Positions 42,510 to 64,000 of a stretch of 64,000 nucleotides of DNA are shown in pieces. The DNA comes from Escherichia phage BAU.Micro_ELP-22. The notes beneath the pieces are model-generated. The model did not search any database and was not told where the DNA came from. It saw only the letters and a list, made by a program, of their open reading frames with translations. Made by a program: the position numbers and the translations under genes. Numbering within the stretch: position 1 is the first letter of the stretch; every line of letters begins with the position of its first letter. The DNA is taken from the sequence record OR699282.2; one strand, given 5' to 3'.

Positions 42510-42546
42510 AAAAAAGAAAAGGAGAGCATTATGCTCTCCTTTTTTA
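42508..42546. terminator. bidirectional rho-independent terminator
   Basis: A-run, GGAGAGC-attat-GCTCTCC, then TTTTTTATT between convergent genes. Confidence 0.7.
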
Positions 42547-45500
42547 TTACTTAACTAATAATATATTTTTAATATCATTACCACTAACTTGTAGACTATC
42601 AGTGTATACTGAAAGATCTATAGTGTAACTATTTTGTGTGTAACGTTTTAACATATCATAATTACCTAAATTAATTCCATTGAAAGAATATGTAGTATTA
42701 AGTTTAAAATCATGTTCTGCACTATACATTACACCACGGAGTAAATTATTTGCATTTCTAACTTCAACTTTTTCATATCCAATCGATATAATATCATTCA
42801 TGTTCGCGGCTGAACCGGATAAAACATTATTTCTAATACTATAAGGACTTATTGATTTAGGTTGAGAAACATAGGTTGTATTTTCTTCACTAATGGTTGT
42901 GATGTTAGTAACAGTACCCCCAACAACACCGATATACATACCGTCAACCATTGGGAATCCATAAACCCATATCCCTTCATTATTTCTAAACGGTTGAATA
43001 ACACTTGAATCATATTCGATAACGTTGATTTCTAAACTATCAGTCATTTTAGTTCTTGCCAATTCACTAAGAACTCCCGCACCCGTAATTGGTAAGTTAT
43101 AACCGTTATCGATAGTAATTCCATCAACATCAAATATTTCATTGGAGATTATCCAAACGTCAACGTCATCTGGTGTTATTCCGTCATTGTACTTACCACC
43201 ATTTAAAGTAGTATCGTAGAAAACATCATAATTAATTACATCAATGGTGTAATTTCTATTTTGTTCATACAATTTAATACCATTCTTGACAAATTCAGGG
43301 TCAGCAAATGTTCTAACACGAACAATGTTCAATGCTAGAGGCTGTACTGGCTCATTTTGTTGTGCAAGAGTGATGTTATCATAACGGAGAACTGCACCAG
43401 TACTCTCATCAATCAATTCAATCGTTTCCTTACCTGTATTTCTTACAGTGAATAGGATCGGAGTTGTATTGTTTTTGATGTTAGATACACGCAAGATTGT
43501 TTCCCATGTGTGATTTTGATATCTCACAAAATCTTCACCATCAGGAGTGAAAATCATCACCTTATCACCATCAGATAGGTCATTGTCAACTATTTCTGCT
43601 TCAGTTAAGCTATTAATAGATCTCACACGATAGAAATATTTTTCATCAAACTTCGATGTTGTTTTATTAATATCATTTTCAATCTTAGCATATGAAGGAA
43701 TACTTACAATTGCTTCTGTATGTTTATATGGATTGATAATTGCCATACCTTCAGTTTGATATCTGCTGTTATCACGTAATTGTACAAGAGATACATTGTC
43801 AAACCCATATCCATCAACTGTAAATCTAATTTGTCCAACATCACGCCCAGAAGGGTTTATGTCAGATATATCCACAATATAAGGATCAACTTCATCATCT
43901 TTAACTTCCCATTTTATTGAAGAAGTTTGAGATTCCAATGCTAGGTTATCAAATGCATTCATATCATTGAAGTACTTAGCTTCAGTAATACTATCAAGTA
44001 TATATTGATAATCAGAATACATTGGATTATTTTGATCTAGTGGTAAATCATCAAGATTTATTTCAGCTAGTTCAACCATTTCACCATTTGTGATAAAATA
44101 ATCTTCCATGAAATCATCAATACTTTGTTCATCAGGTATACTTTGATATACACCGTTAACATTTAAGTAAACATATTTTCGTGGAATCATTGTAATTGCA
44201 TAGATATCAATTGGGGTCTTACTAAGAATCTCTTCAGCTTTTTCGTACTTATCAGTAGCGTCTTTGTCGAATAACCCTCTCATACCTGCTAATACGTGAA
44301 TAGCATCAGTATAGAAACGGGTATCACCACCTACTTCATCATAACGATAAACATATACACCATACTCAACTTCAAGTTTAACTTTTACTTCATAGTCTGA
44401 TGCGTCAGGATTTTTATCTTTAATTAATGAAATGTATTTTTGATACAATTCACTGCTTATTTCAAAATATCCATAGTTATAATCATTACTAGAAGAAAAG
44501 CCTAATGGAAGTCTAGTACTAGGATTGTCATTATAAGTAAGTCCACTAAATCCACATCCAACTTCATCGTGAATTTTCTCATCACTTATATCTTTATAAA
44601 GTTTCAAACGGTTTGCCAATGTGTTATACTGAACATATTGTCTAAGGTCAGTAAACATATCGTTATGCGTTGATTCTTTATAAACACGTTCCAATGTAGC
44701 AGTGAATTCATCAGTTGCTTCTAAATCTTCCGCATGGTCTTTATACCACTGGTTAACGCCATATGCTGTTCCTAGTGTTACATCCAATTCTGGATAGTAG
44801 ATTTGCATTTGATAAGCAATAAGAAGATCGAAAGTTTCTTCACTATATTCTGGGAAAGAATATATATAACGTTGTAATTCATAGTTACTAACAGCATCCT
44901 TTTCATTGGATTGATATTTGTTATTAACACTTACTAATTCATTTATGCTTGCCAAATCTTCATTTGGTTTACACTGAATATTATCATAATGCATAATAAT
45001 ATCAATTTCTTGGAATCTTCTATTTGGTGTAACGAAATCACTTGGTAGTGAACCTACCTGTTCCCATTTTTGGGTAATTTCATTAAATTGAGCGTACTCA
45101 TAATCCCAAATATCTTTTTCAGTTTTGATCCAAGAACTGTCAACGAAAATATATCCATTAGGATCTAAATCATTACATAGACCTTTTATTAAATCATCAT
45201 CAGATGTCTTTTGCTCTATTTGTGAACGAATTTTAGTTCTATAAGGTTTAACTTCTTCAAAATATTCAACAATTTGATTAATCAAATTATCGTTTGAATA
45301 GTTTTGAACTAATGATTGTTCCAAACCAACAATATAGATATATGATGTTTTAAATACCCAATCCACAACACTTTGTTCAACATGTACATATTTGACCATA
45401 TCAAAAACAATTTCGCTTTGATGTAAATCGAAAGAATTTTTGAGTAAAGCTAGTGCTTTACGAACGTTGATTTCACGATTGCTTAGTGAACCATTATCAT

Positions 45501-48500
45501 TATGAACACTATAATCTGCGTAAAGCATATCATTGAGTTCAACTGTACTGTTTTCACGACCAATCGCTTTCCAATAAATTGAATCGCGTGATTGTGATTT
45601 AATATACAATGTCCAAATGTTTTCACTATCGGTAACTCTGATAATATCGCCAACTTGGTAGTTTTTAGTATTAGCATCTTCTAAGCTTGACTCTTGAGTA
45701 TAAGTCGTGTTACTATCATATCCAACATCATACCAATCAGCATATGACCAGTACTGAGTCATGTCTAATGAGGTTCCTAGTGATTCAACATAATCAGATT
45801 GTTTAATCATTTTATGTTGTCCCTCACCTTTGTTTTCTAACGTTATAGTAACAACACTACCCGCGTTTGCTGGACTATTCATTAACTGAATATATCCATT
45901 TTCGTCGAAGTGAATAAAATAAACAGCACTAGAAGTTAATGGATTTGGTAGATATCCACTAGTACTTAAAATAACAGCGTCATTTTCTTTAAATTTATCA
46001 CTTTCAACTGCAATAACTAATTCATTATTGTAAGACAACACACGGAAAGAAACTTCATTAGGGTTAACTTCAGTGGTTTTAACATTAAACACATCTTCCA
46101 TAACAACACTATTAGTGGTTATGTTTTGTGACCTATAATAATTATTAGCACTTTCTACAAAGTTTCTACGAGCTTCTATAACATTTTGGAACCAAGTTTT
46201 GTTTGATCCTAAACCGTTATCAACATCTGGATATAATAAATTAATCACAGAACCTGATTCAGTTGTTTCTTGACCAATTAGTGAGTTCCACATTGAATCC
46301 CAAATTAGTGGGTTAAAGTTATAGCTGTCACCTTCTTTACATAGTTGATACTGGTCATGTTTAACAACTTCAGTACTATCCATGTAATAAGAAACAGTTA
46401 AAATACTGGTATCATCATTCACTTTAAATTGCATATTACTAAGAATAAACGAGTTTTCATTTATTGGAGCGAACCAAGGAATGTTTAGCTGTGTTGGATC
46501 TTTAATAATACGAGCAATGTCAGTACATGATTTCGTTCTGGTATGTAGTGGTGGTACATAAATTGTATCACGTACCCAGAAATAGTATTTTGTCACATAA
46601 CTATCAGTTGAACTATCATATTCCAAAAATGTACTATAATTATCTTCAAGTGCAGTTCCACTTGGTAGATACATAGTATTATTTTTGTTTTTCTTAGCAA
46701 CATCTTTACAGTATTTGTCCCAGTTATATGGCTCAACTGGTGAACAAACCCACTCTAACACATCAATGGTACTATGTGGCAACAAACGGCCCCAGTTGTA
46801 ACGTTTGTATTCATTGGTTGCATCAATATCAACATTACCGTCTGCGTCATAAATTGCACGAGTATAATCCAAATAAAATGCAGTGCTAGTGTTCCACCAT
46901 ACTTGACCAACTTTATCAGCACCCCAAGCCTGGATTAACTCTCCATTACTATTATACTGTGCAGGATCAACTGGTGAAGTATATGTTACGTTTTGCATAG
47001 CCGCACCTGGAATAACACCATTAATTGGGTCATAAACATTTAGATATAGCTCAGTAATGTTAGTACGTTCATCATATGTCGTTGGACGATCAAATAAAGT
47101 ACTTTGTGGTGCTTTAAAACTATATTTCTTGTCAATGTAAGCTTGACGTTCATCAGTACTGGCAAAACGTGATACATAACGATACAAACGTGGACGTGTA
47201 TCTGGATCAGTAAATTCAATATCAATAGAAGTGTCAAATGGAACTACCATAACTTTAGGATCAGAACCAGCAGTATAATATTGACTTTCTACTGTTAAAG
47301 TATCTGGCATAAAGTTAGTTTCATCAACAAAATAATAATAATCACCATCTTCAAGTGGTACATTATCAGTTAAAGTTACTTTACAAAATTGTTCAGCATA
47401 CACATCGGTATTTTCAATAGGTGTTATAGAAACCATTTGCACATTAGTATCAACCAATTCAAAAATGTTCCACAAACCATTACCGTCTTTAAACATCCAC
47501 ACAGATTCAGGATTTTCACCTTTACCATTAGTATAAGTTATGCGGTCATTATATGCAGTACTGAAATCTTTTGTTGTGTACGATACTTCATCCAATGTTA
47601 CTGGACCAATATCTGGAAGTTGGATGTTTTCACTTCTTCCACTACGCATTGGGAATGAGAACTTACCATTTGGACGTGTAATCCAACGAGGATCTTTACC
47701 TTGCTCACCGAAGTATACAATATGATTACCATTACCATTTGAAGTTGCATTTACATCAAAAGAAACCATTTGAGGTTGTTGTTTAAATTGGTCATTGATT
47801 AGTTTAAATTGAAGGTTTTTCTTACCATCAATATTACCATATGTACCAATTTTAAATGCCCATTCTTGTAATGCTTTATATTCATCAGTGTCATATGATT
47901 TAGAAACACGAAGTACACGTTCTAAAACTTGGTTAGTACCTTTATCGTGAATGAATCCTTTATAGAAATCAACACGACTAACATCACTACTAATCATACG
48001 CTGTAGATAATCACGAGATTGATAACCAATCAAATGGTTTGACAACTCTTGTAATTGTACATCACTTACTGGAGTTTCACTATCATAATAATGTTGGAAA
48101 TCCGACACTAATTTTTCAAATGATGGTAGTGTTCCAGCTTCCAAGATAATAAATCCAGGAGCTTGTAGGCGACCAGTCCATGAACCAGTAATATATCCAT
48201 ACATTTTAATTAGTTCTTGAATAGAACCATATGTTGGCTGATAAATGTAATCACCAAAAATAGTTTTATCATCAAAAATAACAGCATGTTCATATGAACA
48301 CAAACTTAAACGAATCAATGCAATGCGTTTATTAGATTCTAAAGTTCTAACAGTGAAGATATTTCCAATACGAGAAGTTTCAATTTCATATTGGCGAATA
48401 CCTTGGTTATTATCATCAAGTAATGACCATACACCACCATTATTTTGCGTAATAGATTGTACTGAACCAAAGTCTGCCCCAAATTTAGCGTTTGCAGCAC

Positions 48501-51500
48501 TTGGGGTACAAGAAATAAATTCACCAGTTACTAGAGAATTCTGACTCCAGATCACGAAATCTTTAGCAATAGTGTTCCAATCTTGTTGAGCACCACTATC
48601 ATTTACATCTTCAAAAATCCAACCATGTTCTTTAAGATATTCACCATATCCACAAATAAAAGTATAAACTTCTTGGTAACTATTGAAAACTTTACCATAT
48701 TCAATTGAAGCTTCAGACTTCCATTCATTATAATGAACAACATTACGGTTTTCCAATTTAAGAGTTACTTTTCTACCATTTTTTACTGGAAGTTTATATT
48801 TAAATTTAGCACCAACTAGATCATATCCATCAATCTGATATGCACTACCATTCCAAGTAATTTTGATCGCACTCATTTGCTCATCACGGATATTATTAGA
48901 ACGAACAAGACCAATGGTTTGGTTTTCTTGTGAAATAAGACCGAAAGATTTAGCATTGAATGTTAGCTGATCTGCTTTAGTAAATCCTCCAATTTTATGA
49001 CCAACATTTATATAAGAAGAACGAACTACATCCCCATACTTGGTAGTAATATTTTTATTTTGATACATCAAATGGTCACTTACAAACATTTGATAACCAA
49101 TTGTTCTTGTGCTATTTTCACCATGAACTACTGTATTTTTATCAAAATTAATACGCTTACGTGTATCACCATAAAGGAATTGTGAACCATCAGTGAATAC
49201 TTCTTTTAAGTTATCGTTGCGGGTATCCCAGAAATAGTTAGCAAATTGTGCTGGTTTAGCTTTATACAAAAGCATCATTTGGTCATATGCAAACAATGTA
49301 GTGTTCATGTATGTAAATTCCATGTCACCCATATCACCATATGTCCAAGGTTCTGCTCTATGATTTAAAGATCCAGACACTAAACCTAAAATTTCAGGTG
49401 CAATATATTCAACCACACAAATATCAATACCAGAAGATGTTTTATTTCCAGTTTTTGTAATTTTGAATGGCTGTACACCAAATCTTTTATATTTGTCATA
49501 TTGACCACGACGATCACCAAATAAAATAGTTCCAGTACTGCTATCGCCAATAGTTCCGTCAATATCCCAAAGACCACTAGGAACTAAATCACCTTGCTCA
49601 TTCATAACAAGTGCTTCATATACATATACAACATCACTATCACGTTCACCAACTTGAACAGCCGTTGGTTCGTATTCTTGGTTCCACCAAGTTGGACGTT
49701 GTGTAAAGCCAAACATTTCCCACGGATGGGTAGCTGGGCGATATGTACCATATTGGTCAGTGTAAATGGCACGCCATGAACCACGTGCAGGAATTTCAGT
49801 ACTTTGACCATTAACTACATAATAAGTGCCAGTATAGTTCCAAGTTCTCCAATTGTTAGGATCATAATCATGTGTACTATTACTGATACCATTAGTTGCG
49901 GTGAAGTTAATGTATCCACGTAGTAATAATGTTTGTTTCTCTTCAGCACTATATTCAGTTTTAGTGAAATATGGTGTAGGGAAAAGGTCATCACTATTCA
50001 ATACTGGTACGTAATCAACATCTTTGAATTTATTATCAATACTATTAAAAATTCTATTTTCTAATTCATATACAACATCATCCATTTTATCAACACCATT
50101 GATAACACGGTATGCTTTGGAAATAATACCAGTATGACTGATGTTATAACAGCTTGGTTTACTACCAGCAGTGAGGAATGTCGCTTTTTCTGGTACATAT
50201 GCTTGAAGAATACCTAAGAACTGTGGTGTTGGTGGTATAAATGCACGAATGAATCCAGAAGTACTTCCAACATTATCATAATAGAATGGGAATGAACTAT
50301 CACGTCCCATATTAATAGTAGTTAAAATTGCATCAACAATGTTTGCAGCACTATTTTGTAAAAAGTCTGATGGATTTTCATCATACATACGAAGCATTTG
50401 TGTATTAAATTTATTAATGAATCTAAAATATTCAGATTGCATAAACATAGTTGCTTCAAACAAATCAATATCTTCATTTGCAGTATGTGCCATCAATGGA
50501 AGCATAGATGCTTCATTTTGGATAATTTTAGTACCTACGCCATTATTAACCAATCCTTTAGCCAAACGTTCTTCATAGTCATTGAAATCATCAGAAGAAC
50601 CACGTGTAATGTTCTTTTGAATAATATCCTGAAAATGTAAAGTGTAGTCACCTTGGTTAATGTATATAATATTAGAATTATATGGGTTATTTTGTAGGTT
50701 GATTGGAACTTCATATGCACCTAATTCTTTATTAGGAGTTACAGTACTGCTATAAGTTCTAATTTGAATAACAGAATCTTCATCCAATTCTACAGTACTA
50801 TCTAGAGTGATGCTTTGTACTTGACCTTTTGAAACATTTTTGGTATATTTGGACACATCAACACCATCAACCACAACTTCAATAATATCAGAATCATTAT
50901 CTAAAACTTTTTGTGCCAATTCGAATGTATGGTCATATTTTACAATCTGAACACCATCACCAGTAATTGGATGCCAATCTAGATAAGTTTCACGGTCAGC
51001 TTTATAGTACTGATATGTTCTATCAACTTCAATAACATATGCATACATACCATCAACTGGTTCTTTAAAAACTTCCATATCATAAACAGTACTGAATACA
51101 CGATACATATCAGTACGTTGGACTTGTGGAGTTTGTTTTACAAATTGTTTAGAGTACTCTTCTGAACGAACCCAATCGGTTTGAAGATTCATTTCATTAT
51201 TTTCATCAATAATGTTATAATAGTATAAACCATCAATTTCAACTTCTTTTCCAAGATGGTCATAGGTATAACGTTGGGATTGTAAAAAGTTTTCATAAAT
51301 GTAATAATTATAATCACCAAGTTCAATGTTATATCCATATACACTATCAGTTGCATAGTTGTAATTTATTTTAAAACCAAACAACTCTGAACCTTTAAAG
51401 TTACTTGATGGATATGTAGTACTGTTGTCAAGTTTGATACCATTACGATCATAAAGTTGGAATTTAGGGAATACGTTAACACTAGTTTTTGATTGTGCAC

Positions 51501-52548: not shown

Positions 52549-52563
52549 TTGATTTATTTATGA

Positions 52564-52590
52564 TATAAAAAAGGCGTTCCGAAGAACGCC
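52564..52590 (-). terminator. rho-independent terminator with UUCG tetraloop (minus strand)
   Basis: GGCGTTC-cgaa-GAACGCC; T-tract on the minus strand; lies between the J-like gene and the giant ORF. Confidence 0.55.
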
Positions 52591-52597
52591 CGTTATA

Positions 52598-55500
52598 TTA
52601 AGAACCGATATTAATATTACTTTTAGCTAGTGAGTTAACAATTTGAACATTTTCAACAGATGCAGTACTCAAAAATATTTGGTCTGAACGTGAAGGGATT
52701 TCAAATAGAGAGCCAAATTTTGAATTTGGATTTTGTGCAACTATAACAATGGTACTAATATGCCTACCTAACTGTGAGTGTATGTAAGTACACAAATCAG
52801 TATAATAGAAACTTTCACCGAAATCCCAGTTATCAACATTGAAGTATTCATTAGTTAATGCTATGACATTTTGACGAATTTCATCATCACTCATTGTGCT
52901 GTTTGGTAATTTCACTACTTTAAAATCAGCTTTGTAATCTTCAGCAGCACTGTTGCCAAATAAAGGTAAGTACTCAGCACTATGCCAAATAATACTATCA
53001 CTAATGACTATTTTTTGTTCAACATCTTTGAACATATCTTTCAATTCAACAGATGTAGGTGGTTTAGGAATACTACCAACAGCATTATTTTTCAACCAAA
53101 CGTCAACTTCAGTTTTATATGAATTGGTTAATACATACATATCAATTAAGTTTGTTCTACTAGGATCAATGCGATTGTCGTCAGGTGCATAGTGTTTCCA
53201 ATGGAAGTCTATACTAGTACGTGCATTAGTTTTAACAGTGTACTGTGAAGTAACATCTTTGTATCCATAATAATCTAGCTTCTGATTCTCGTCAGCATTA
53301 GTTCCCATGTTATTAATTGCACGATAAAAAGCCAATTCAGGACTAACAGTGCCAGTATCATCGGAATAAGTTAAATTACTAATTAGCTGTCCTAAACGAT
53401 CATTGTTATTACCAACTGTTTGTTCAATAAAATAATATTTACCATCATAGTTAAAACCAACTAAAAATCCAGAACCTTTACTATATAATCCACTCAATGT
53501 GGTTGAACGAATTGCGTTATTTCTAACAAATTCAGTTCTTTTATATGCATTCGGCTCTGCCAAGGCTTGTTCCATTGTATAAGACCACGATGAATCAAGA
53601 AGTGTGAAGGTATCATTTGGTAACGACAGTACTGATATAGTGAAATCACTATTTTCCTGAAATACCAAAATACCACCATATTTTAATGCATCGGTTCCAG
53701 TCCAAGTAGGAACAATTTCTTTAAATTGGTTTGGTTCCAATGGTATACCATTACTATCTACTTTCCTAGATGTAACAATAACACGAGAACCATCTAGATA
53801 GCCATTCTCTTGTTGAATTGTGTCATAAATTTGAAAATCTATATTACTTGTCAATCCTGAATTACTACTACTAGTAGTGTTAGATGATAAAATTTCAATC
53901 TTATCACTTTGAACTGTACCAGTACTAATATCAGTAATTTTTTTAGATGATACAAAGTAAAATCTTACTTTTTCTCCACCCACAAAAATATATTCAATAC
54001 CGTTAGCATCAAATTCCCAAGTTTCTGCTGTATATTTTACATTAATTATAATTAAAACTTCATTGCCATTATATACAATAGTATCATCGTTGGTACTTAC
54101 TTCAATAGGAACCCATGATGTCGTTTCTTTGTCATGTACAATAACAAAATCAGTTTTTTTATCTAGCATAGCAGAAATTGCTTGAACTTCAACCGAGTTA
54201 AATCTAGTTCTATATGGTAAAATGTACTCTATGGCTTGCATTCCACTTGGAACCGATGTACTCAGTACATAAAATCCATTATCCAATACACTAACTACAC
54301 TAGCCCATATAGTAGTTCCAGAATTAGAAAATTTAATTAGAGTACCAACCTGATATGAACCATAAACTGTACCAGATGAACCCAAAATTCTACCATATGT
54401 GTTAGTTGTATAATTTGAATTGTATACCGGAGTCCATGCTTGTTGTATTTCAATACCAATTGTATTTGATGGAAACGCTTGGTAACGTTGTATTACCGCA
54501 TTTTCACCAATCAATGGTTGAATATTGTCAATAACAATACTAGCATTTGTTTTTGTAGTTGGTAGCAATAATGACCTATTAAATTGTGTGTTTTCTTGAT
54601 ATAATGCACCATCATCACTAAAAACATCGGTATTTTGATACTTACCAGTAGGATCATTAATATCAATAAATCTTGATTGTCCACTATAAATTCTATTAAT
54701 AGCTTTAGATTTAAGTACAGTATTGCCTAAACTAAGTGGTGCAATATTATAATCTTCACCATTGACAAAACGGTTTTGTGTATAGTACATTTGTGGTGCA
54801 CGTGCTTTAATCTGCTCAATAGTCTCTGCACTTTGTGCACGGTCGGACTCATATTGTAATGAAAAACGTATATCCAATGTACTAGATTCATAACTTGACT
54901 GTGTTTTTGTACGATATGTATATTTTACGCTTTTGTTTTGAATTTCAGAAGTTTTAATGTTATATGTTTTACCATTACTAACACGATACCATACGCGGAA
55001 CGTCCCACGGGGAACAACACCACTTCTTGAGTCTGGATACTTAATTGTTATTTGATCTTTATCACGAGTAGTAACAGCAAAAATTGTTTTTAATTGACGA
55101 TTAACAGTGTTATATGCAATACTTTCCATTGATGGAACTTTTGTCCATTTGGTACGAACAATACCATCTTCATTTATTTCTTGAACCCATACATCAGTTT
55201 CGTTGATATTATCAACGTTAATATCTTGTATACGGTTCTCTTCACGGATAGCATATTGATAATCTTGATATGTCAATGTACCTTGTACGAAATATACAAA
55301 AAAACCAGTATTTGGTGAGCTAAATCCATTACCATCATTTTGATAAACAATATATTTTTGCTCTTGTGGTTCTGGATGTCGTTCTTCAACACCAACAGAC
55401 GTAATATCAGGATTCACTACTTCAAATGTCATAGATTCACCATTGACAGTTGCAATAAATGGAATACTGGGTGCTGTCATTGGGATTGTGTTCATTCGAT

Positions 55501-56059
55501 ATAGTTGACGGGAGACACCATTAACATCAATACGCTTGACTGGATTACCAAATTGGTTAGTACTGACAAATGAACTGTTCATTACTAGAATGAAGTTTTC
55601 ATACCAGTTAGCATCCATCGGGTCATTCCAACGAATGATTTTATCTTTTAATGATTCATTAAAACTATTACGAACATCTTGGTTTGTTTTAATTTCGGTT
55701 AATTTAGCAACTGCACGACCTGGATATGAGCGGCGTGGTGAGTAAGAAATCATTTTAGCTAGTTTTAGTACTGATGCACGACGAGTTGCAGTATCTAAAA
55801 AGTTTTCACGTGTGTTCAAATCCATACGAAATGCCAAGTTCTGCCCTAGCATAGAAATCGTATCTAAAATAAAAATAAACTGGTCGTTTTCGATCCAGTC
55901 GTTGAATGAGTCTGGGTAAGTTGCACGTAGATAATCAATCATACTCTGACGGATAGTATCGAAGTCATAAGCTGTAAGATTGATTTTATAAAAACTTTCA
56001 TATACTTGAGTCCAATCCTCACCAGCGTATAAATTTGATTGCCTTTTTTGTTGTGACAT
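52598..56059 (-). CDS. baseplate wedge protein, baseplate-J-like
   Basis: N-terminal pattern YDFDTIRQSMIDYLRATYPD...RENFLDTATRRASVLKLAK resembles baseplate-J family N-termini; synteny with a gp25-like gene. Confidence 0.55.
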   Translation of the reverse strand: MSQQKRQSNLYAGEDWTQVYESFYKINLTAYDFDTIRQSMIDYLRATYPDSFNDWIENDQFIFILDTISMLGQNLAFRMDLNTRENFLDTATRRASVLKLAKMISYSPRRSYPGRAVAKLTEIKTNQDVRNSFNESLKDKIIRWNDPMDANWYENFILVMNSSFVSTNQFGNPVKRIDVNGVSRQLYRMNTIPMTAPSIPFIATVNGESMTFEVVNPDITSVGVEERHPEPQEQKYIVYQNDGNGFSSPNTGFFVYFVQGTLTYQDYQYAIREENRIQDINVDNINETDVWVQEINEDGIVRTKWTKVPSMESIAYNTVNRQLKTIFAVTTRDKDQITIKYPDSRSGVVPRGTFRVWYRVSNGKTYNIKTSEIQNKSVKYTYRTKTQSSYESSTLDIRFSLQYESDRAQSAETIEQIKARAPQMYYTQNRFVNGEDYNIAPLSLGNTVLKSKAINRIYSGQSRFIDINDPTGKYQNTDVFSDDGALYQENTQFNRSLLLPTTKTNASIVIDNIQPLIGENAVIQRYQAFPSNTIGIEIQQAWTPVYNSNYTTNTYGRILGSSGTVYGSYQVGTLIKFSNSGTTIWASVVSVLDNGFYVLSTSVPSGMQAIEYILPYRTRFNSVEVQAISAMLDKKTDFVIVHDKETTSWVPIEVSTNDDTIVYNGNEVLIIINVKYTAETWEFDANGIEYIFVGGEKVRFYFVSSKKITDISTGTVQSDKIEILSSNTTSSSNSGLTSNIDFQIYDTIQQENGYLDGSRVIVTSRKVDSNGIPLEPNQFKEIVPTWTGTDALKYGGILVFQENSDFTISVLSLPNDTFTLLDSSWSYTMEQALAEPNAYKRTEFVRNNAIRSTTLSGLYSKGSGFLVGFNYDGKYYFIEQTVGNNNDRLGQLISNLTYSDDTGTVSPELAFYRAINNMGTNADENQKLDYYGYKDVTSQYTVKTNARTSIDFHWKHYAPDDNRIDPSRTNLIDMYVLTNSYKTEVDVWLKNNAVGSIPKPPTSVELKDMFKDVEQKIVISDSIIWHSAEYLPLFGNSAAEDYKADFKVVKLPNSTMSDDEIRQNVIALTNEYFNVDNWDFGESFYYTDLCTYIHSQLGRHISTIVIVAQNPNSKFGSLFEIPSRSDQIFLSTASVENVQIVNSLAKSNINIGS

Positions 56060-56123
56060 AATTTATTCCTTTAAATCAGTAAAGTACTAGTTCAGTACTG
56101 GGAATTATATATAGAAATATTTA

Positions 56124-56156
56124 TTCAAAAAGAAAAGCACTCCGAAGAGTGCTTTT
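56124..56156 (-). terminator. rho-independent terminator with UUCG tetraloop (minus strand)
   Basis: GCACTC-cgaa-GAGTGC with flanking A/T runs. Confidence 0.55.
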
Positions 56157-56160
56157 GTAA

Positions 56161-56556
56161 TTATAAAGACGATACTGAATATGTTGCCATTCTGTTATTA
56201 CTTCTTGCATCGAATACAATAGTAAGTTCTTCTAATGTATCCAATACTACGTACTGTAATACAATATTCATTTGGTATCCATATTCTATTCTTGAAATTT
56301 GCAATTTCTTAAGATTTAAGCGTGGATCTAAGCTAATTATTCTACGGGCATCTGCTTCCAAAAGGTTGATAGTATTATAACCTTCCAATTCAAACAGCAA
56401 ATCCCATGCAATAAAACCATAGTCAGCATCAAATGCTCTTTCGCCTTTTTTTGTATTGAAATGATTCATTAAATCTTGGCGAACCAATTCACTATCATAC
56501 AATGTTTCAGTTCTACCCACTACTGGGGTAGAAAAACCTTTAAAAACAACTGCCAT
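56161..56556 (-). CDS. baseplate wedge protein, gp25-like
   Basis: 131 aa; KGERAFDADYGFIAWDLLFE block of the kind found in gp25-family proteins, by recollection only; AAGGAAA SD. Confidence 0.55.
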   Translation of the reverse strand: MAVVFKGFSTPVVGRTETLYDSELVRQDLMNHFNTKKGERAFDADYGFIAWDLLFELEGYNTINLLEADARRIISLDPRLNLKKLQISRIEYGYQMNIVLQYVVLDTLEELTIVFDARSNNRMATYSVSSL

Positions 56557-56571
56557 TGACTATTTCCTTTA

Positions 56572-57060
56572 TTATACGGATTCAACAATACGTGCCATCT
56601 TTTCCGCTCTTGAAGTGGTTTGTTTATACCATGTACTATCACGCAATTCCTTACCAGCAGTTTTATAATCAGCCTTACCTAATGCGGTCATTGCTTTTTT
56701 AAATTTTAAAACTTTGGTTTTGCCCATCTGGAATACCATCAACCATAATACACGTTGAACCTGTACAGGTGCGGTCATACCAAATTGTTCATAAATTGAT
56801 TTTGCATCATTGTACGCAGTTTGAGCATCTTTAAGAAGAAGTTGGTCAGCTTGTGCTTCTGTTAAACCATTCTTGAAATTTTCACCAGGTAAAACTAGGT
56901 GACCATAGCCAATAGTATCAAGACCTAAGCTGTCTTTATATACCCAAAACTTATCATTTTTAAAATAACCAAGTTTTTTCTGATAAGCAATAGTTCCTTC
57001 AAATTCTTTAATTTCCTTAAAAAATTGCTCATCTGTATTTTTAATTTCCCATTTACTCAT
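56572..57060 (-). CDS. GH24 (T4-lysozyme-type) lysozyme
   Basis: EFEG...YKDSLGLDTIGYGH...LWLMVFQMGKTKVLKF...STWYKQTTSRAEKM matches T4 lysozyme blocks, with catalytic Glu/Asp/Thr positions conserved. Confidence 0.85.
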   Translation of the reverse strand: MSKWEIKNTDEQFFKEIKEFEGTIAYQKKLGYFKNDKFWVYKDSLGLDTIGYGHLVLPGENFKNGLTEAQADQLLLKDAQTAYNDAKSIYEQFGMTAPVQVQRVLWLMVFQMGKTKVLKFKKAMTALGKADYKTAGKELRDSTWYKQTTSRAEKMARIVESV

Positions 57061-57076
57061 AAAGATATCCTCGTTT

Positions 57077-57084
57077 TATTTATA
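57077..57084 (-). promoter_or_regulatory. T4-type late promoter box TATAAATA (minus strand)
   Basis: Exact TATAAATA 16 nt upstream of the lysozyme ATG, followed by GAGGA SD. Confidence 0.5.
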
Positions 57085-57096
57085 GTACTAAAATAT

Positions 57097-59760
57097 TTAT
57101 TGACATGCCTCTAAACGACGAGCCATTAACTCAGCACGGCGAGTAGTTTGGCGATACCAAGCTGAATTACGTATTTGAGCAGCAGCTTGTTTATAATTAC
57201 CTTTAGCTAATTCAGACAACATAGTTTTAAATTTAAGTACCCCACCTTTACCCATCTGGAATACCATTTGGCATAGTACTTGTTGAGCCAAATAAGGTGT
57301 TTTCATGTTGTATGAAGCATAAATTGATTTAGCATCATATATAGCTTTACTACTATCACGAACTAACATATCGTTGGCTTGCTGTTCAGTTATTCCATCT
57401 GAAAAGTTTTCACCACTAATAATTAAGTGACCATAACCAATAGTTGGATACCCACGACTATCCAAATAACGCCAGAATTTACCATTACGATAATATCCTT
57501 TTGCTTGTTGGTATTGTAATGTACCTTCATATTCTTTTAATTCAGAAATAAATTGTGCATCACCTGGAACAACTTTCCAATCGATTGCAGTTTTATCAAC
57601 ATTTCCAATATTATAGGTAGGTTGCTCCACCGGAGTTGTTGAAGCTCCACTTCTCTGTGTTCTTCTCCTACGAGGCACATGACGAGAACCACGTTGAGAA
57701 TATCCAGTACCTATCGTTTTGATTTTTGTTGTAACTACCAATTCATCACTATCAACTGAAGGTTGTACAACTGCTTTTGGAGCAGATTGATTAGTTGCTT
57801 GACCACCAATTAATGTTTTATTCGCCGCATCAGACCCTGTTCCTGTTTGTGAAGCATAAAATAATCCTGGGTCAACAGAACCACTGAATCCAAGAACATT
57901 TGCTGATGTAACACGAATTTCAAACTGTATGACACCATTTGCTTTTCCAACAACTTGACCTTTTTGAACAACATCTTTGTTTAATAAATCAGATTGAATA
58001 TTATAAAAAATAGATTTATATCCAGACTTATGTTGTATTAAAAGAGCACCATTAGTAATTACTACCACACCACCATCTGGTGCAACTACATCACCTTTAC
58101 ATTGTATTTCCCAACCTGAACGGTCTGCCTTTCCTCCACTTTGTGTTGGAACACCTTTCCCCCAGTAACCATATTGTCGAATAGTGCCGCTACATGGCAT
58201 TAACATATGTAAACCTTCATATGTAATACTATATCCAGTCATCCCAGGATCAGATGTCATCAAATCTTGTGATTGAACTTGTTCAGTTTCTGATGTATAG
58301 TTAACAAACTGAACAGCTTCAGTGTCTTGTGCTACGGGTAATTCTGGTGATACATCATTTGCTGGTTGTGGTTGTACTGGTGATTCACTAGAACCACTTC
58401 CACCACCTTGTCTTGGTGGTTCAACATAACTACCATGATTTTCAGCGTTAACCCATGCAGCAATATCATGAATGTGTTCATTAAGACCAGCAGATGGTGT
58501 TCTAAAGTTTGGTGCAGTAAATTCAGCAGTACCGCTATTACCACCACTATTAACTGTTAATGTTTGACCACCACCACTAATAATTGCTGATGATGATCCA
58601 ATTAGGTTTGCAGATGTTGCGGCAGAAATAGAAGCATTTGAACCAGCCGTAATATCAGTACTGCTACCACTTTGCATACGTAATGATGCAGCAGTAACTA
58701 AACGAAGGTCTGCCCCAGAATTAACAACAACTTGTCCACCAACTTTTGCATCAAGAGCACCAATTAGATCTAATTTAGTATTTGCACCAACTCGTGCATT
58801 GAAATCTTGTCCGGTTTCAATATTATATGAACGTCCAGCAGTAATATTAATATCTTGACCAGCACGAATATTAATATTCTTATCACAGTGCATGTCAATA
58901 TCACCTTCACCAGTGAATTTTATACGTGCAGTTCCATCACGGTTAATTAAAAGAACATCACCAGTAGCTTCTGATAAAAGAAGTTGTGCACCACTACGTG
59001 TTTTTATTACGACACCTTCATTTTTACGAGAACCAACACGTGTATCGTTTACTGGGTTATTAAATTGTGTATCTTGATATCCATCTGGGTCTTGATCCCA
59101 CGTTGGTGCTGTTAATTCCTCTTCAGTATATCCATCATCAATAATAAAACTATTACCACGTGGCGAAGACATACCATATACAGTACTGGTGGTTTGTCGA
59201 GTACTACTACGATTCGCCAACCCAGCTTCTTCGTCATATAAAAGGTTTTGCTTTTTAAGACCTGCGATAATTGGAACGTTAGCATATTTGTCTTGCATAT
59301 CGGTAGTGATAGTGTTACGATCATAGTCAGTAACAGGAAGTGGCATATCAGTTCCACCATAATTACTTACTTCAGTTGCCATACCTGGAACCATAGTATT
59401 CATACGCTGGTCATATACACAACCAATCCAATATGCTTGGAATGTACGGGCTTGTGCAAAAATTACAACAACTGTACACCCTACGTCTGGTGGTACTGCC
59501 CAAAAACCGTATCCTTTTGGATATTGACCATATGCATCAGCACTTGGAATACCTGGTGTTTTACCAGCAAAAGGAGACATGTAAGATGCTTCTATCCATG
59601 ATTCTTTTGAGTTTTTATCACTTTGAGAACCTTGTATCCAAACTTTCAGTTTTCCTGATTTAGTTGGATCTCTGTTATCCATAACAGTTGCTAACTGCGG
59701 ATAAGATGGGTCAAAACGACCCAACTGCTGTTGTGCATACTTTTTACTTGTATCTGCCAT
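57097..59760 (-). CDS. baseplate central spike protein with C-terminal GH24 lysozyme domain
   Basis: Central NINIRAGQDINITAGRSYNIETGQDFNARVGANTKLDL-type beta-helical repeats; M23/LytM-like region lacking obvious HxxxD and HxH; C-terminal YEGT...YLDSRGYPTIGYGH...CQMVFQMGKGGVLKF...SAWYRQTTRRAELM. Confidence 0.75.
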   Translation of the reverse strand: MADTSKKYAQQQLGRFDPSYPQLATVMDNRDPTKSGKLKVWIQGSQSDKNSKESWIEASYMSPFAGKTPGIPSADAYGQYPKGYGFWAVPPDVGCTVVVIFAQARTFQAYWIGCVYDQRMNTMVPGMATEVSNYGGTDMPLPVTDYDRNTITTDMQDKYANVPIIAGLKKQNLLYDEEAGLANRSSTRQTTSTVYGMSSPRGNSFIIDDGYTEEELTAPTWDQDPDGYQDTQFNNPVNDTRVGSRKNEGVVIKTRSGAQLLLSEATGDVLLINRDGTARIKFTGEGDIDMHCDKNINIRAGQDINITAGRSYNIETGQDFNARVGANTKLDLIGALDAKVGGQVVVNSGADLRLVTAASLRMQSGSSTDITAGSNASISAATSANLIGSSSAIISGGGQTLTVNSGGNSGTAEFTAPNFRTPSAGLNEHIHDIAAWVNAENHGSYVEPPRQGGGSGSSESPVQPQPANDVSPELPVAQDTEAVQFVNYTSETEQVQSQDLMTSDPGMTGYSITYEGLHMLMPCSGTIRQYGYWGKGVPTQSGGKADRSGWEIQCKGDVVAPDGGVVVITNGALLIQHKSGYKSIFYNIQSDLLNKDVVQKGQVVGKANGVIQFEIRVTSANVLGFSGSVDPGLFYASQTGTGSDAANKTLIGGQATNQSAPKAVVQPSVDSDELVVTTKIKTIGTGYSQRGSRHVPRRRRTQRSGASTTPVEQPTYNIGNVDKTAIDWKVVPGDAQFISELKEYEGTLQYQQAKGYYRNGKFWRYLDSRGYPTIGYGHLIISGENFSDGITEQQANDMLVRDSSKAIYDAKSIYASYNMKTPYLAQQVLCQMVFQMGKGGVLKFKTMLSELAKGNYKQAAAQIRNSAWYRQTTRRAELMARRLEACQ

Positions 59761-59773
59761 AATATTTTATTCC

Positions 59774-62023
59774 TTAATCAACTATACTATCGTGACGTTT
59801 GAGTGCACGAATTACAATTGCAGCTTGAATTTGTTGTGTAAAAGAACCACCTGCACCAAAATCATGAACAATTTTATTAACACGATAAATTGTTTGGTTA
59901 AATGTGGTTGGTGTATTAATATCCAAAACACCAGTGTTATCATTTATTGATATTACTGGTTGTAATTTTAGTAATAGATACGCTTCAGATGTTATATAAT
60001 TTGCTACATGATAATCATCTGGGTTAATTTCCATATCTTCACCATTAATTACTTGTTCTAGATATTGTAAGTAAGAGTAATCACTCCACCCTAACCAGTA
60101 CGGGTCACCTACTACACGCATATCGAGTTTACACAAAAAAGGTCTATTGTAATAGTTGTCACGTATTTTACGTCTATCCATTTCATATGTGCTGCTGTTA
60201 TCGTTTAACGAAGCGGATAAAGTTGTTTCATTGTTAGTTGCTTCGGTTGGCATTGTGAACACTTCACCATAACGGTGACCAACACCATCAGTGCCACCAT
60301 CGTTTTCTTCATAAGTGGTTACATAATCTTCAATATATTGAGGTAAAACATTGACTTGATAGTTATTATAACGGTCTTGTTCTTCTGCGTTACCAACCTG
60401 CATTTGATTTTTTGCTAAAGTTTCAACTTCAGTTAACAATTGTTGTTGGGCTTGTGTTAACATCCCTCCTAAATCACGAGTTACACGTAAATCACTTGTT
60501 TTTGCCCATGCGTCTGGTATACTATTGTATTGTACACCTTGAATATTGAGTTCTTGGGATGTATGTGTACCTGCATGGTTCGCTACATCTTGTATCGGAC
60601 CAGGGTTACGTGTAGTGGCTACGAAAAATTGCTGATCAAATTTCAAATCCAAATCAAGTATCTCACTATTAAGCCCACTAAATTGATAATTATAAGTTTT
60701 CATGTTTATTTTTGGTTTTTGATCATTAGGATCTACGTATTTTTCTGCGTTCTCAAAAAAGTACTCAAATGTGAAATTTTCAGGTTGTAAATCCGATTCA
60801 TGAACAATATCACCTATTTTAAATCTAACAATATAAAAAATTACTTTATAAACAGAAGTATTACGATAATTATCAAAACCAACGTATTGTTTAACTGGTA
60901 TAATGTTTACAAATTGACGCACACTAGTACTATCATCGGCTTGTACAGTACATGTATCAATAACGTCATCAATAATTCGAGATATAGGAGTACTTGGGTT
61001 CCATGAAAAGTTTTTAGAACCTTGTGCACCACTTTTAGTTGTTCCGGCCTCTGCCATTTGTTTAGAATCATAGTTTATAAACAAATCTTGCAAATCAGGT
61101 GCTACTTTAAATTCGAAAAATTTACCTTCGGATAATTCACCAAATTTATATCTAAGATAACCATATTGTTGGTCAGCCATCTGATTTAATTTATCTTCTA
61201 AATCAAAGCAGAAGTCACCAAAGTTTTCAGCAGTACAATTGAATGGTTCTTTTAAGGTCCATTCAATGTTATCAACTAAAGCTGCTCTATTATGAACTAA
61301 GTTCATAGTATACATCATAGTACTACCACTTTGTGAAGCACTTGCAGTAACACTATTAATTTTAACTGACCAGCGTCTTGTTGTTTCTGGGATAATTTCA
61401 GGTATTCCATTTTTATTAAAGCCAATAAACTTTAATTCCAAGATCAATGGCAAGTCCATAAATTTATGATATCTAAGTTTGTTACTTAACGAAATTAATT
61501 CATCATATAGACTCATACTATTATTTTCAGACATATTAAGTACTGCTGTATTAAAACAATAGTTTGTTGTCATTCCTGGTGTTGAAGGTCCAGCTTGTGT
61601 CATTTGTACACTAGTGATATTATATTTGCCAGTAACACCACTTTCTGATATCACATGTCGTTGCACTTCTGCATCTGGGTAAAGCCAAAAGTTTTTAAAA
61701 TCATCTTTATCTAAGGCAAATAAACAAAAGTGCCAAGTTGGGTTATCATATTTCAATAATTTATTGTCATACGGTATTACAAACTGACTTAAATCGAGAT
61801 CTTCATAAACTTGATCAACACTAGCACTTTGTTTTGGTAATGATACTACATTACTTACATTTGCTTTGTAATTATTTTTTGTAATAGTTTTTACATCATT
61901 TTGTAATGTATTTGCTGTAGCTTTCAAACTATCAAGTGCATTAGATGTGGTGGTTTTAGCCTTACCAGTAATACTTGTAATATCATTTTGAAAATTATCA
62001 ACTGTACTTCGTAAATCTGCCAT
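59774..62023 (-). CDS. hypothetical baseplate protein (possibly hub-associated)
   Basis: 749 aa directly upstream of the spike gene; ATG with GGAG SD; position only. Confidence 0.4.
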   Translation of the reverse strand: MADLRSTVDNFQNDITSITGKAKTTTSNALDSLKATANTLQNDVKTITKNNYKANVSNVVSLPKQSASVDQVYEDLDLSQFVIPYDNKLLKYDNPTWHFCLFALDKDDFKNFWLYPDAEVQRHVISESGVTGKYNITSVQMTQAGPSTPGMTTNYCFNTAVLNMSENNSMSLYDELISLSNKLRYHKFMDLPLILELKFIGFNKNGIPEIIPETTRRWSVKINSVTASASQSGSTMMYTMNLVHNRAALVDNIEWTLKEPFNCTAENFGDFCFDLEDKLNQMADQQYGYLRYKFGELSEGKFFEFKVAPDLQDLFINYDSKQMAEAGTTKSGAQGSKNFSWNPSTPISRIIDDVIDTCTVQADDSTSVRQFVNIIPVKQYVGFDNYRNTSVYKVIFYIVRFKIGDIVHESDLQPENFTFEYFFENAEKYVDPNDQKPKINMKTYNYQFSGLNSEILDLDLKFDQQFFVATTRNPGPIQDVANHAGTHTSQELNIQGVQYNSIPDAWAKTSDLRVTRDLGGMLTQAQQQLLTEVETLAKNQMQVGNAEEQDRYNNYQVNVLPQYIEDYVTTYEENDGGTDGVGHRYGEVFTMPTEATNNETTLSASLNDNSSTYEMDRRKIRDNYYNRPFLCKLDMRVVGDPYWLGWSDYSYLQYLEQVINGEDMEINPDDYHVANYITSEAYLLLKLQPVISINDNTGVLDINTPTTFNQTIYRVNKIVHDFGAGGSFTQQIQAAIVIRALKRHDSIVD

Positions 62024-62034
62024 ACGTTACTCCA

Positions 62035-62349
62035 TTAGCCTATGTTTCGAGTACCATTAAGATAATTCTGTACTCTTTGATTTGCTGGTATTCTAATTGT
62101 TACTCCACTTTTAAAATTATATATAGGATCTTCTCCTAGTATGTCTGGATTTAACAATGCGAAAATATAATATAAGCGTTCATTACCATACATTTCGTAT
62201 GCTAAACGCCAAGGTTGATATTCATATTTCAATGGGATCTCATAAAAATCATCAGTATCAGCCGGAACAATATCACGTGGTAAATTATACCCAAGATACC
62301 ATGTTTGTTTCACCTTAGCGTAAGGTGAGTATTGACTATAGTTGGACAT
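62035..62349 (-). CDS. hypothetical protein
   Basis: Start overlaps the upstream stop (TAATG). Confidence 0.4.
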   Translation of the reverse strand: MSNYSQYSPYAKVKQTWYLGYNLPRDIVPADTDDFYEIPLKYEYQPWRLAYEMYGNERLYYIFALLNPDILGEDPIYNFKSGVTIRIPANQRVQNYLNGTRNIG

Positions 62350-63080
62350 TAAATGAATCCTCCTTTACGTAATAGTTCACCACGTTTGAATGCATTGAGG
62401 TTGAACGTTTTAGTCATATAATCCGATGTTGGTTGTTCTTCAAGTTGTAACATAACTGAGATTTTTTGTGGAACCCAAACTTCATCTTGTGGGTTCATAT
62501 ATCCAGTACTTCTAAGTTGTTCGAAGAATTTTCTACTATCCATGTCGGATAAATTAAAAGTACTATCGCTACTATTCAACGGAACTTGAATATAAGAAAC
62601 ATCATTTGGGTAAGTAAAATTATAAGATTTTAAAATAACAGGAATATCATTATATGTATAACGACCATATCCACTTAGAAGTAAGATTGGTGGTGGTGCA
62701 CCTGCAATTGCGAGTTCGGGGTTATTAGCCGAAGCAGCTTGTCTACCAAAATCCATCAACGAAACAGAACGTATAAAATGAACACATGCCAACGCATACA
62801 TAGCTTCTGCTGCGGTATTCGCATAAAATTCACCCTGAATCGTGAAAACTGTATTAGTAGTGTTCTTATAGTTGTTATAGTTACTGTTAGTATGTATAGG
62901 GGACTGTGTTTCATACTGAATTGACCTTTGTTCAGTAATTGTTGGTGTTACAGTCCAAACCAACCCATTAGTTGGACGCAGAAACGAAAGTAGAGTTGGT
63001 TCGGAGCTATCTCCAAAATCACCATATACATAGTTAGCACCTGCGGCTTTAGGTCGTAATCGAATTCTACGATCAATCAT
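62349..63080 (-). CDS. hypothetical protein
   Basis: ORF-track start 63170 is TTG; first ATG with GGAGAA SD at 63080. Confidence 0.4.
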   Translation of the reverse strand: MIDRRIRLRPKAAGANYVYGDFGDSSEPTLLSFLRPTNGLVWTVTPTITEQRSIQYETQSPIHTNSNYNNYKNTTNTVFTIQGEFYANTAAEAMYALACVHFIRSVSLMDFGRQAASANNPELAIAGAPPPILLLSGYGRYTYNDIPVILKSYNFTYPNDVSYIQVPLNSSDSTFNLSDMDSRKFFEQLRSTGYMNPQDEVWVPQKISVMLQLEEQPTSDYMTKTFNLNAFKRGELLRKGGFI

Positions 63081-63126
63081 CTTTTTGATTCTCCATAATA
63101 AGGGAACATTTGATGTATTTATACGT

Positions 63127-63154
63127 GGGACAAACTGCTTTTTGGTGCTATAAT
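63127..63154 (+). promoter_or_regulatory. sigma70-type promoter (GTGGGACAA, 16 nt, TGcTATAAT)
   Basis: GGGACA 63127-63132; TG 63146-63147; TATAAT 63149-63154; palindrome GGTACAAGGATTGTACC at 63164-63180 follows. Confidence 0.5.
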
Positions 63155-63211
63155 AACATTGATGGTACAAGGATTGTACCTATTGGATTTAAACATGGAG
63201 AGTAAAATACA

Positions 63212-64000
63212 ATGACAAATAGACCAAAGCGTAAAAAGTATCTCAATAATGCTGATTTACTTCGTGAAATACAAAAAAGTAAAATTTCATATTGCTGGTT
63301 ATTAGACAAATCATATAGTATGTATGATTATATTGTTTTTCATGAGTCAGAAATTACTGCTGAGTTACTAGAAAAAGCTAAGGCAGCACGAATTAAACGA
63401 CTGAACAATGAAATGCTTGATAGTATTCGTGAAAAGGAAAATATGAGTGCTAAAAAAGCTAAAGAATATGCAGATGAACACAATTTAGTTATCACTGACG
63501 TTCCAATTGATGAAGTTGTTATTCGTGTTATTACAGATGAACATATTCCACCAGATACTAGAGTTAACTTTGAACCATTCAAGCATTATATTGTAGATAA
63601 TGAAGGTATTCTCTATGAAGTTTGTCGTTCTCACTGGAAAGGCGACCTTGAAACTGGTGAATTCAGTACTGTTCATGGTAAAATTACAAATGAACTTGGG
63701 AAGATGTTCATTAAACTTGCAGAGGAAATCTCACACAAATCTAATTACAGAAACTATACATACTTAGATGAAATGATGGGTGATGCAAGAATACAATTAG
63801 TTAAAAACGCACTTCTCTTTAAAGAGAGCATTCTTTATAAAAAAGATAAACCAGCAGTTCAGCTAAATCCTTTCTCTTACTATACATCATTCGTAAACAA
63901 TAGTTTTCGTTCTATATTGAATAGTGAGAAAAATGTTCGAAATATACGTGATGATTTACTTGAAATGCATGGCTTTACGCCATCACATACACGTCAAATT
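63212..64000 (+). CDS. gp55-like late-transcription sigma factor (5' part; runs off the window)
   Basis: Frame open from ATG 63212 to the window end, not in the ORF track because no stop is present; KKYLNNADLLREIQ, GKMFIKLAEEISHKSNYRNYT and NPFSYYTSFVNNSFRSI resemble T4 gp55 regions. Confidence 0.55.
   Translation, partial: MTNRPKRKKYLNNADLLREIQKSKISYCWLLDKSYSMYDYIVFHESEITAELLEKAKAARIKRLNNEMLDSIREKENMSAKKAKEYADEHNLVITDVPIDEVVIRVITDEHIPPDTRVNFEPFKHYIVDNEGILYEVCRSHWKGDLETGEFSTVHGKITNELGKMFIKLAEEISHKSNYRNYTYLDEMMGDARIQLVKNALLFKESILYKKDKPAVQLNPFSYYTSFVNNSFRSILNSEKNVRNIRDDLLEMHGFTPSHTRQI

Follow-up and report, generated by a model that had tools for sequence, protein, structure and literature searches.

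The baseplate genes of phage T4 are arranged in the order 53-5-5.1-segC-5.3-5.4-6-7-8..., gene 25 lying apart in a hub cluster, and those of its relative, Vibrio phage KVP40 (Straboviridae), in the order 48-53-tail protein-5-5.1-PAAR-[two opposite open reading frames (ORFs)]-25-6-7-8. In phage P2, the order is V-W-J-I-H-G, all in a single operon that has a single promoter and terminator. T4 late promoters are gp55-dependent, with transcription starting 6-7 nucleotides (nt) downstream. The T4 core genes of the Rak2-like phages include gp6, gp25, gp53, and gp15, and in CBB 35 sites upstream of structural genes were found to carry the sequence ATAAATA, which was likened to the T4 late promoter, a late motif being reported for both CBB and GAP32 (PMC5259590). 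Here we describe a gene cluster formed by eight minus-strand ORFs between positions 42547 and 63170 of a 64,000-nt stretch of DNA (the window) from Escherichia phage BAU.Micro_ELP-22 (sequence record OR699282.2). A first-pass annotation had read these ORFs as a baseplate operon of P2-like rather than T4 order, with two internal terminators that could tune stoichiometry by partial termination. We consider it likely that the region holds the clustered baseplate genes of a PBECO4/121Q-type jumbo myophage of the genus Asteriusvirus, a distant branch of the T4 superfamily, and that it is expressed as several late units.

Genes of the cluster and their relatives

All eight ORFs were found on the minus strand in the order first proposed; by the assignments given below, the cluster reads x-53like-x-5like-lys-25-6like-giant. 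The genes that they contain, with lengths in amino acids (aa), are as follows.

62349-63080 (ORF 62349-63170), minus strand: virion structural protein of 243 aa (phrog_12050, E 3e-151), occupying the place of KVP40 gp48
62035-62349, minus strand: gp53-like baseplate wedge protein of 104 aa (PF11246 at 22.4 bits against a cut-off of 21, marginal; phrog_7145, 2e-45)
59774-62023, minus strand: virion structural protein of 749 aa (phrog_11190), hub candidate by position only
57097-59760, minus strand: central spike of 887 aa (PF04717, PF10106, and PF00959, all above cut-off)
56572-57060, minus strand: stand-alone GH24 lysozyme of 162 aa (PF00959, 5e-9)
56161-56556, minus strand: gp25/gpW-family sheath-initiator wedge protein of 131 aa (PF04965 at 35.1 bits, cut-off 27.2)
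52598-56059, minus strand: gp6/gpJ/TssF-like baseplate wedge protein of 1153 aa, by predicted fold (phrog_219 'baseplate wedge subunit', 1e-20)
42547-52518 (ORF 42547-52548), minus strand: giant virion protein of 3323 aa counted from Met11 (phrog_10938), with a conserved N-terminal module of ~450 aa

While the order of the ORFs stands, two of their starts had been over-extended. For the first gene, the likeliest start is ATG 63080 (243 aa) and not TTG 63170, because the records give a gene of 732 nt, a GGAG lies upstream of this ATG, and the sequence TATAAATA at 63116-63123 falls inside the supposed extension. For the giant gene, ATG 52518 (Met11) is the most probable start, rather than 52548, given its GGAG Shine-Dalgarno sequence, the annotation of phage G17, and a PHROG alignment that begins at residue 11.

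Over a 7.4-kilobase (kb) piece, the region shares 99.8-99.9% identity with Salmonella phage SD-15_S21 and Escherichia phages UB and PBECO4, and 96% with 121Q, all of them jumbo myophages of the genus Asteriusvirus. From PBECO4 the window differs by 0.1-0.2%, with nothing material in the difference. The Asteriusvirus and Rak2-like counterparts (PBECO4 NC_027364 gp531-gp538; 121Q genes 582-588; G17 MK327931; CBB_236-243; RaK2 gp454-465) are identical or syntenic genes bearing the same labels (gp53-like, hub/lysozyme, gp25, and baseplate wedge T4 gp6-like), and synteny is kept in RaK2, CBB, PA5oct, and a distant contig of a cyanobacterial metagenome-assembled genome (MAG). The flanking genes are also T4-type: a gp55-like late sigma, the gp47/46 nuclease subunits, and endonuclease VII lie upstream, and a gp15-like tail completion protein is encoded downstream. 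Since the gene annotations, the terminators (in the G17 record), and the ATAAATA motif (in the CBB paper) have already been published, the consequences for genome annotation are small.

The identity of the spike, described beforehand as a spike with lysozyme, follows from its domains: an N-terminal OB domain at residues 23-116 (PF04717, 29.8 bits, cut-off 23.8), a beta-helix of the DUF2345 family at 278-329 (PF10106, 34.7 bits, cut-off 30.7), and a C-terminal GH24 lysozyme domain at 765-882 (PF00959), which is 34% identical to the lysozyme domain of T4 gp5 (E 1e-16). An N-terminal OB domain with a beta-helical spike domain is what defines the gp5/gpV/VgrG spikes, and the PDB matches of the protein are to gp5 and T4 lysozyme. 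The architecture of T4 gp5 itself, where the lysozyme lies between OB domain and beta-helix, is not matched, the lysozyme of the window spike being C-terminal, after the beta-helix, while KVP40 gp5 has none. The spike homologue on the cyanobacterial (Richelia) MAG contig also shows a weak Gp5_trimer_C match. In the ~360 residues between beta-helix and lysozyme (400-760), which gave no family match, there is a Gly/Ser/Pro-rich stretch around 438-470.

The stand-alone lysozyme that had been proposed next to the spike is equally present and is 53% identical to spike residues 728-885 (E 3e-57); to judge by this similarity, it is a paralogue of the spike C terminus. The W-like ORF is a member of the gp25 sheath-initiator family, scoring above the curated cut-off of PF04965 and matching T4 gp25 (2e-7), KVP40 gp25 (3e-6), and P2 gpW (2e-4) in BLASTP searches. 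A hidden Markov model (HMM) of the gp53-like family, built from six relatives, matches KVP40 gp53 at 1.8e-10 and T4 gp53 at 4e-6. In sequence, gp25, gp53, and the lysozyme are nearer to the T4/KVP40 proteins than to those of P2, and the best reference matches of the gp53-like, gp25-like, and gp6-like proteins are KVP40 proteins.

Homology searches on the J-like and gp25-like ORFs had been named as the check on which their assignment would stand; the gp25-like ORF fell into PF04965, and the J-like call was borne out by predicted fold, not by Pfam. An AlphaFold2 model of the 1153-aa protein (64 sequences) reached a pLDDT (predicted local distance difference test) of 81.8, and Foldseek matched it to T4 gp6 chains 5iv5_A and 5iv5_B (E 2.5e-10 and 4e-11, probability 1.00), which were taken as gp6 because of their lengths (658 and 648 aa, versus 660 for gp6) and not from a chain label. 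Further matches at probability 1.00 were to wedge proteins of phiKZ and Klebsiella phage KP1, P1 BplA, a Streptomyces contractile injection system, the T4 gp6 crystal structure 3h2t, and Mu 9ki1_H. A profile of 20 sequences from this family matches P1 BplA (2.4e-4), the match lying in the N-terminal motif that also aligns, weakly, with T4 gp6; hhalign comparisons of this profile with the single T4 gp6 and P2 gpJ sequences were too weak for use (probabilities 3.8% and 0.4%). The gene also occupies the gp6/gpJ/TssF position, directly after the gp25-type gene and before the position of the third wedge gene. Relatives of the protein carry the newer Pfam family DUF8360 (PF27647), and the 121Q record already labels its counterpart "baseplate wedge (T4 gp6-like)". 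The predicted fold thereby supports naming the 1153-aa DUF8360 protein as a gp6-type wedge protein.

Homologues of the 243-aa protein (phAPEC6 gp238, CBB_243) and of the 749-aa protein (phAPEC6 gp240, CBB_241) have been detected in virions by mass spectrometry. Family HMMs of both gave nothing against the T4, KVP40, and P2 baseplate proteins, so labels such as gp48-like for the former and gp27-like for the latter remain guesses from position.

Terminator hairpins and late-promoter-like motifs

Seven short elements lie in and around the intergenic spaces of the cluster. "Site P2" below denotes a motif, as distinct from phage P2.

52565-52591, minus strand: predicted intrinsic terminator T1, with an 8-bp stem, UUCG loop, and U tract; annotated in G17 and UE-S1
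56126-56156, minus strand: predicted intrinsic terminator T2, with a 10-bp stem, UUCG loop, and U tract; annotated by ARNOLD in G17
42517-42543, between the giant gene and a convergent ClpA-like gene: terminator hairpin T3, -16.9 kcal/mol, z -4.7, with a U tract; annotated in G17
63116-63123, minus strand: TATAAATA, candidate T4-type late promoter, site P1, 36 nt upstream of the first gene
57077-57084, minus strand: TATAAATA, candidate late promoter, site P2, 17 nt upstream of the free lysozyme gene
56118-56124, minus strand: ATAAATA, late-promoter-like motif, site P3, directly after T2 and 59 nt before the gp6-like start
52555-52561, minus strand: ATAAATA, late-promoter-like motif, site P4, directly after T1 and 36 nt before ATG 52518

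The two internal UUCG-tetraloop terminators of the first-pass annotation are real hairpins of terminator-like form, with C(UUCG)G loops and U tracts. The T1 stem (52591..52572) reads GGGCGUUC-UUCG-GAACGCCU and is followed by U6 (-13.1 kcal/mol, z -4.8); that of T2 (56156..56133) reads AAAAGCACUC-UUCG-GAGUGCUUUU and is followed by CUUUUU (-13.4 kcal/mol, z -5.5). None of 200 shuffles folded as well at either site. Hairpins are present at both internal sites in six diverged relatives (UE-S1, Turkey5, A4, SE_PL, RaK2, and CBB), and their stems differ: GGCGUUC, GGCGGCC, GGCAUC, and GGCGUCC at the T1 site, where four of seven pairs show compensatory changes, and GCACUC, GGCAUCC, GGCUCC, and GGCAUC at the T2 site (SE_PL, RaK2, and CBB included). 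A G+C-rich hairpin followed by a U tract and kept in relatives is the form of a rho-independent terminator, and these hairpins presumably act as such. A possible hairpin in the 5' untranslated region before the gp6-like gene folded no better than shuffles (z -0.17).

The distribution of the promoter-like motifs is far from random. The exact octamer TATAAATA occurs twice in the 64 kb, against 10.4 occurrences expected, and both copies lie in the cluster, on the minus strand, in gene orientation. The heptamer ATAAATA occurs 14 times in the window, where base composition predicts about 50; nine of these copies are in intergenic sequence, which makes up 4.4% of the window (P about 1e-9), and all nine are in gene orientation, 7-59 nt upstream of a start. 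The strong avoidance of both motifs inside genes is consistent with selection against spurious late promoters. The window thus contains, upstream of late genes, the octamer-like element of T4-type late promoters in non-random place and orientation. A scan for sigma-70 promoters was uninformative (88 sites, versus 109 in shuffles).

Comparison among relatives gave further detail. At site P1, (T)ATAAATA stands at the same place in Turkey5, A4, SE_PL, RaK2, CBB, and PA5oct. Site P2 is present in UE-S1, Turkey5, A4 (as ATAAATA), and RaK2, and is degenerate in SE_PL. At both internal terminators, the ATAAATA that follows the hairpin is invariant in the seven phages compared, while the stems and the neighboring bases drift, and site P4 is spaced like the other sites (33-37 nt). 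Between the spike and the lysozyme/gp25 genes of RaK2 and PA5oct, ORFs run on the opposite strand; these interrupt co-transcription, and the genes downstream therefore need a separate promoter. Between the gp25 and gp6-like genes, where the window and PBECO4 have the terminator-promoter cassette alone, 121Q and JP4 carry an additional gene for an HNH endonuclease. The 121Q record notes its HNH gene (gene 584; 3767-4531 of the 121Q stretch examined) as 'associated with group I intron'.

One reading of these elements is a phage P2-type V-W-J-I operon transcribed as one unit, whose UUCG hairpins would be leaky attenuators that step down first the J-like and then the giant protein. Spike, W-like, J-like, and next gene do stand in the V-W-J-I order, the hairpins are strong and run into U tracts, and, by analogy with the (gp6)2-gp7 module of T4, a wedge needs fewer copies of its last protein than of the gp6-like one (PMC10457771). 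The invariant late-promoter-like ATAAATA after each hairpin, however, speaks for re-initiation rather than mere attenuation, and PA5oct keeps the gene order without any terminator. A step-down after gp25 would also leave less gp6-like protein than gp25, the opposite of a T4-type wedge, in which two copies of gp6 accompany the single gp25. In content the genes are T4-type, and their order is also that of KVP40; V and W, moreover, are not adjacent in the window, and the giant gene, unlike I of phage P2 with H and G behind it, is not followed by fiber genes. We regard the single attenuated operon as unlikely. Of the proposal that partial termination tunes stoichiometry, the hairpins survive; pure attenuation of one operon is weakened and is not the simplest reading, because a conserved ATAAATA lies within a few bases of each terminator.

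The hairpins might instead serve mainly as 3'-end stabilizers or processing boundaries of late mRNAs, with the adjacent ATAAATA being an AT-rich spacer without promoter function. From established RNA thermodynamics, UUCG-capped hairpins are very stable RNA ends, as this explanation would have it. Against it stand the overall depletion of ATAAATA and its concentration at gene-oriented intergenic positions, its invariance across genera while neighboring bases drift, and the gp55-type late sigma encoded next door, which together leave the explanation very improbable.

The simplest reading of the sequence is that the cluster comprises three or four late units split by terminator-promoter cassettes, of which the two internal hairpins would be one half each, and not one attenuated operon; promoter activity of the (T)ATAAATA motifs is part of this proposal. 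Expression would probably be late and driven by the phage gp55-type sigma from (T)ATAAATA promoters, the first unit running from site P1 to the spike gene, the second from site P2 through the lysozyme and gp25 genes to T2, the third from site P3 through the gp6-like gene to T1, and the fourth, containing the giant gene, from site P4 to T3. The terminators may allow some read-through.

The giant protein encoded after the gp6-like gene

In T4, a gp6 dimer is present per wedge in a (gp6)2-gp7 module (PMC10457771), and the giant protein may be the gp7-like partner of a gp6-like dimer, the adjacency of the two genes being the support for such a partnership. That it is the functional counterpart of gp7/gpI is a tentative proposal, to which we give at best an even chance. 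If true, jumbo phages would have found a new way to complete the wedge, hanging a huge peripheral structure on the gp6-type dimer.

Homologues of the giant protein were found in virions by mass spectrometry (phAPEC6 gp245, 382 kDa; CBB_236; PA5oct gp355). In an exhaustive search of representative sequences, the N-terminal module matched 1303 clusters (E <= 0.001), nearly always as the N terminus of proteins of 3000-6300 aa; two word-indexed searches had returned only 4 and 2 proteins. In shorter module proteins, RCC1-type repeats take the place of the long tail. The module is thus very widespread in metagenomes, and it has no solved relative: a profile of 14 N-terminal modules retrieved neither a PDB chain, even at E <= 10, nor a Pfam family. 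For the giant protein itself, no match was obtained in the PDB (phmmer), Pfam (E <= 5), or NCBIfam (E <= 0.1), and BLASTP against T4 gp7 gave nothing. The cryo-EM paper on phiKp24 concerns an unrelated family and assigns no baseplate protein.

The giant protein may alternatively be no counterpart of gp7/gpI at all, being a peripheral scaffold of the baseplate or fiber network that docks through its N-terminal module, in which case another small protein would be the third wedge member. Searches by sequence and by fold did not link it to gp7, gpI, or TssG, its shorter relatives carry RCC1-type repeats after the module in the manner of exchangeable fiber proteins, and virion proteins of 243, 749, and 497 aa without assigned role are encoded nearby. 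On the other side, the module-protein gene abuts the DUF8360 gene with a gap of 1-2 nt even in the very distant JGI metagenome and Richelia MAG contigs, just as T4 6-7, P2 J-I, and KVP40 6-7 abut or overlap, and no other gene of the cluster is in the gp7 position. In a monomer model, the first ~50-130 residues of the giant protein are helical at low confidence; such an N terminus is what would be expected of a helix-turn-helix that needs the core bundle to fold (PMC10457771), and it is compatible with a gp7-like role without being evidence for it. We hold a purely peripheral role to be possible, if somewhat doubtful.

Several observations weigh against the reading of the region as a baseplate cluster with T4-type late units and a gp7-like giant protein. 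The 1153-aa protein has no match to Pfam Baseplate_J (PF04865) even at E <= 5 and no useful one in NCBIfam (E <= 0.1), and its pairwise BLASTP alignment with T4 gp6 is marginal and N-terminal (E 0.064). Neither the 243-aa nor the 749-aa protein usefully matches Pfam (E <= 5), NCBIfam (E <= 0.1), or reference proteins, nor does the latter match the PDB. An HMM built from 142 giant N termini scores -4.1 bits against T4 gp7 and -4.7 bits against P2 gpI, and fold searches give the giant protein no link to T4 gp7, P2 gpI, or solved structures; its description as I-like holds for position only. Site P2 leaves just 17 nt before the lysozyme ATG, and CBB lacks it. PA5oct lacks both terminator-promoter cassettes, the corresponding gaps being 14 and 6 nt, and the modular arrangement is not universal in the clade.

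The two distant contigs show other neighbors of the module gene. On the Richelia sp. MAG contig (GCA_012033295.1; 1-24728), which is probably phage or prophage-like and stems from a very distant relative, the genes encode a lysozyme, an OB protein, a spike with lysozyme, two opposite-strand ORFs, gp25, a DUF8360 protein, and a module protein of 1575 aa, followed by Collar/Gp10_C fiber genes. On the JGI contig (3614-17612), the gene after the gp6-like gene encodes a short version of 1332 aa (N-terminal module and RCC1 repeats), followed by two small ORFs, a resolvase, an IS605 OrfB/TnpB-type gene, and an ORF of >2810 aa; here the giant gene may have been split or remodeled by a mobile element.

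Downstream of the cluster, two further genes were assigned:

40221-42509, plus strand: ClpA-like AAA+ ATPase (phrog_4871, 'ATP-dependent protease')
38617-40110, minus strand: virion structural protein of 497 aa (phrog_11591), between the ClpA-like and gp15-like genes

The ClpA-like gene, convergent to the giant gene, separates it from the remaining tail genes, and this placement is kept in PBECO4, G17, RaK2, and CBB. The 497-aa protein has no match in Pfam (E <= 5), NCBIfam (E <= 0.1), or the reference proteins. Minus-strand ORFs of 171, 80, and 63 aa (42014-42529; 63340-63676) overlap the opposite-strand ClpA-like and gp55-like genes; the first two had no family match in PHROGs, nor the first in Pfam, and all three are most likely spurious.

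Comparison with T4, P2, and KVP40

In its putative late transcription, the cluster resembles T4: late structural genes are preceded by the same octamer or by ATAAATA, its core, and a gene for a gp55-like sigma lies adjacent. It differs in that homologues of gp33 and gp45 were not found in the relative CBB (PMC5259590).

With phage P2, the window has in common a spike, a gp25-type, and a gp6-type gene, with a fourth wedge gene directly after. It differs in having internal terminators and promoter-like motifs, a lysozyme gene between spike and W-like gene, no gpI similarity, and, after the giant gene, a convergent ClpA-like gene instead of the H/G fiber genes. What marks the single operon of phage P2, namely one promoter and terminator, V adjoining W, and fibers after I, is not found in the window.

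With KVP40, the window shares the succession that runs from gp53 through an unnamed protein, gp5, gp25, and gp6 to the next large wedge gene. The differences lie in the proteins and in what comes after them: the gp6-like protein has 1153 aa, versus about 650 in KVP40, the gene after it encodes 3323 aa unrelated in sequence to gp7, and no recognizable gp7, gp8, gp9, gp10, gp11, or PAAR gene follows.

The claim of a P2-like rather than T4 order does not hold in the light of these comparisons, since the 53-5-6-7 colinearity of T4 is retained in the window, only gene 25 is placed differently, and KVP40 has the order of the window. The cluster had been called a minimal V-W-J-I order with insertions; the relative order is indeed that one, but it is shared with relatives of T4, and its last member is I-like by position only. 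The order says nothing about affinity to P2, because it is a general contractile-tail order that includes T4 relatives. It is the ancestral order of contractile injection machines, common to P2, extracellular injection systems, and KVP40, and T4 proper is the derived case, in which gene 25 (and hub genes) moved elsewhere.

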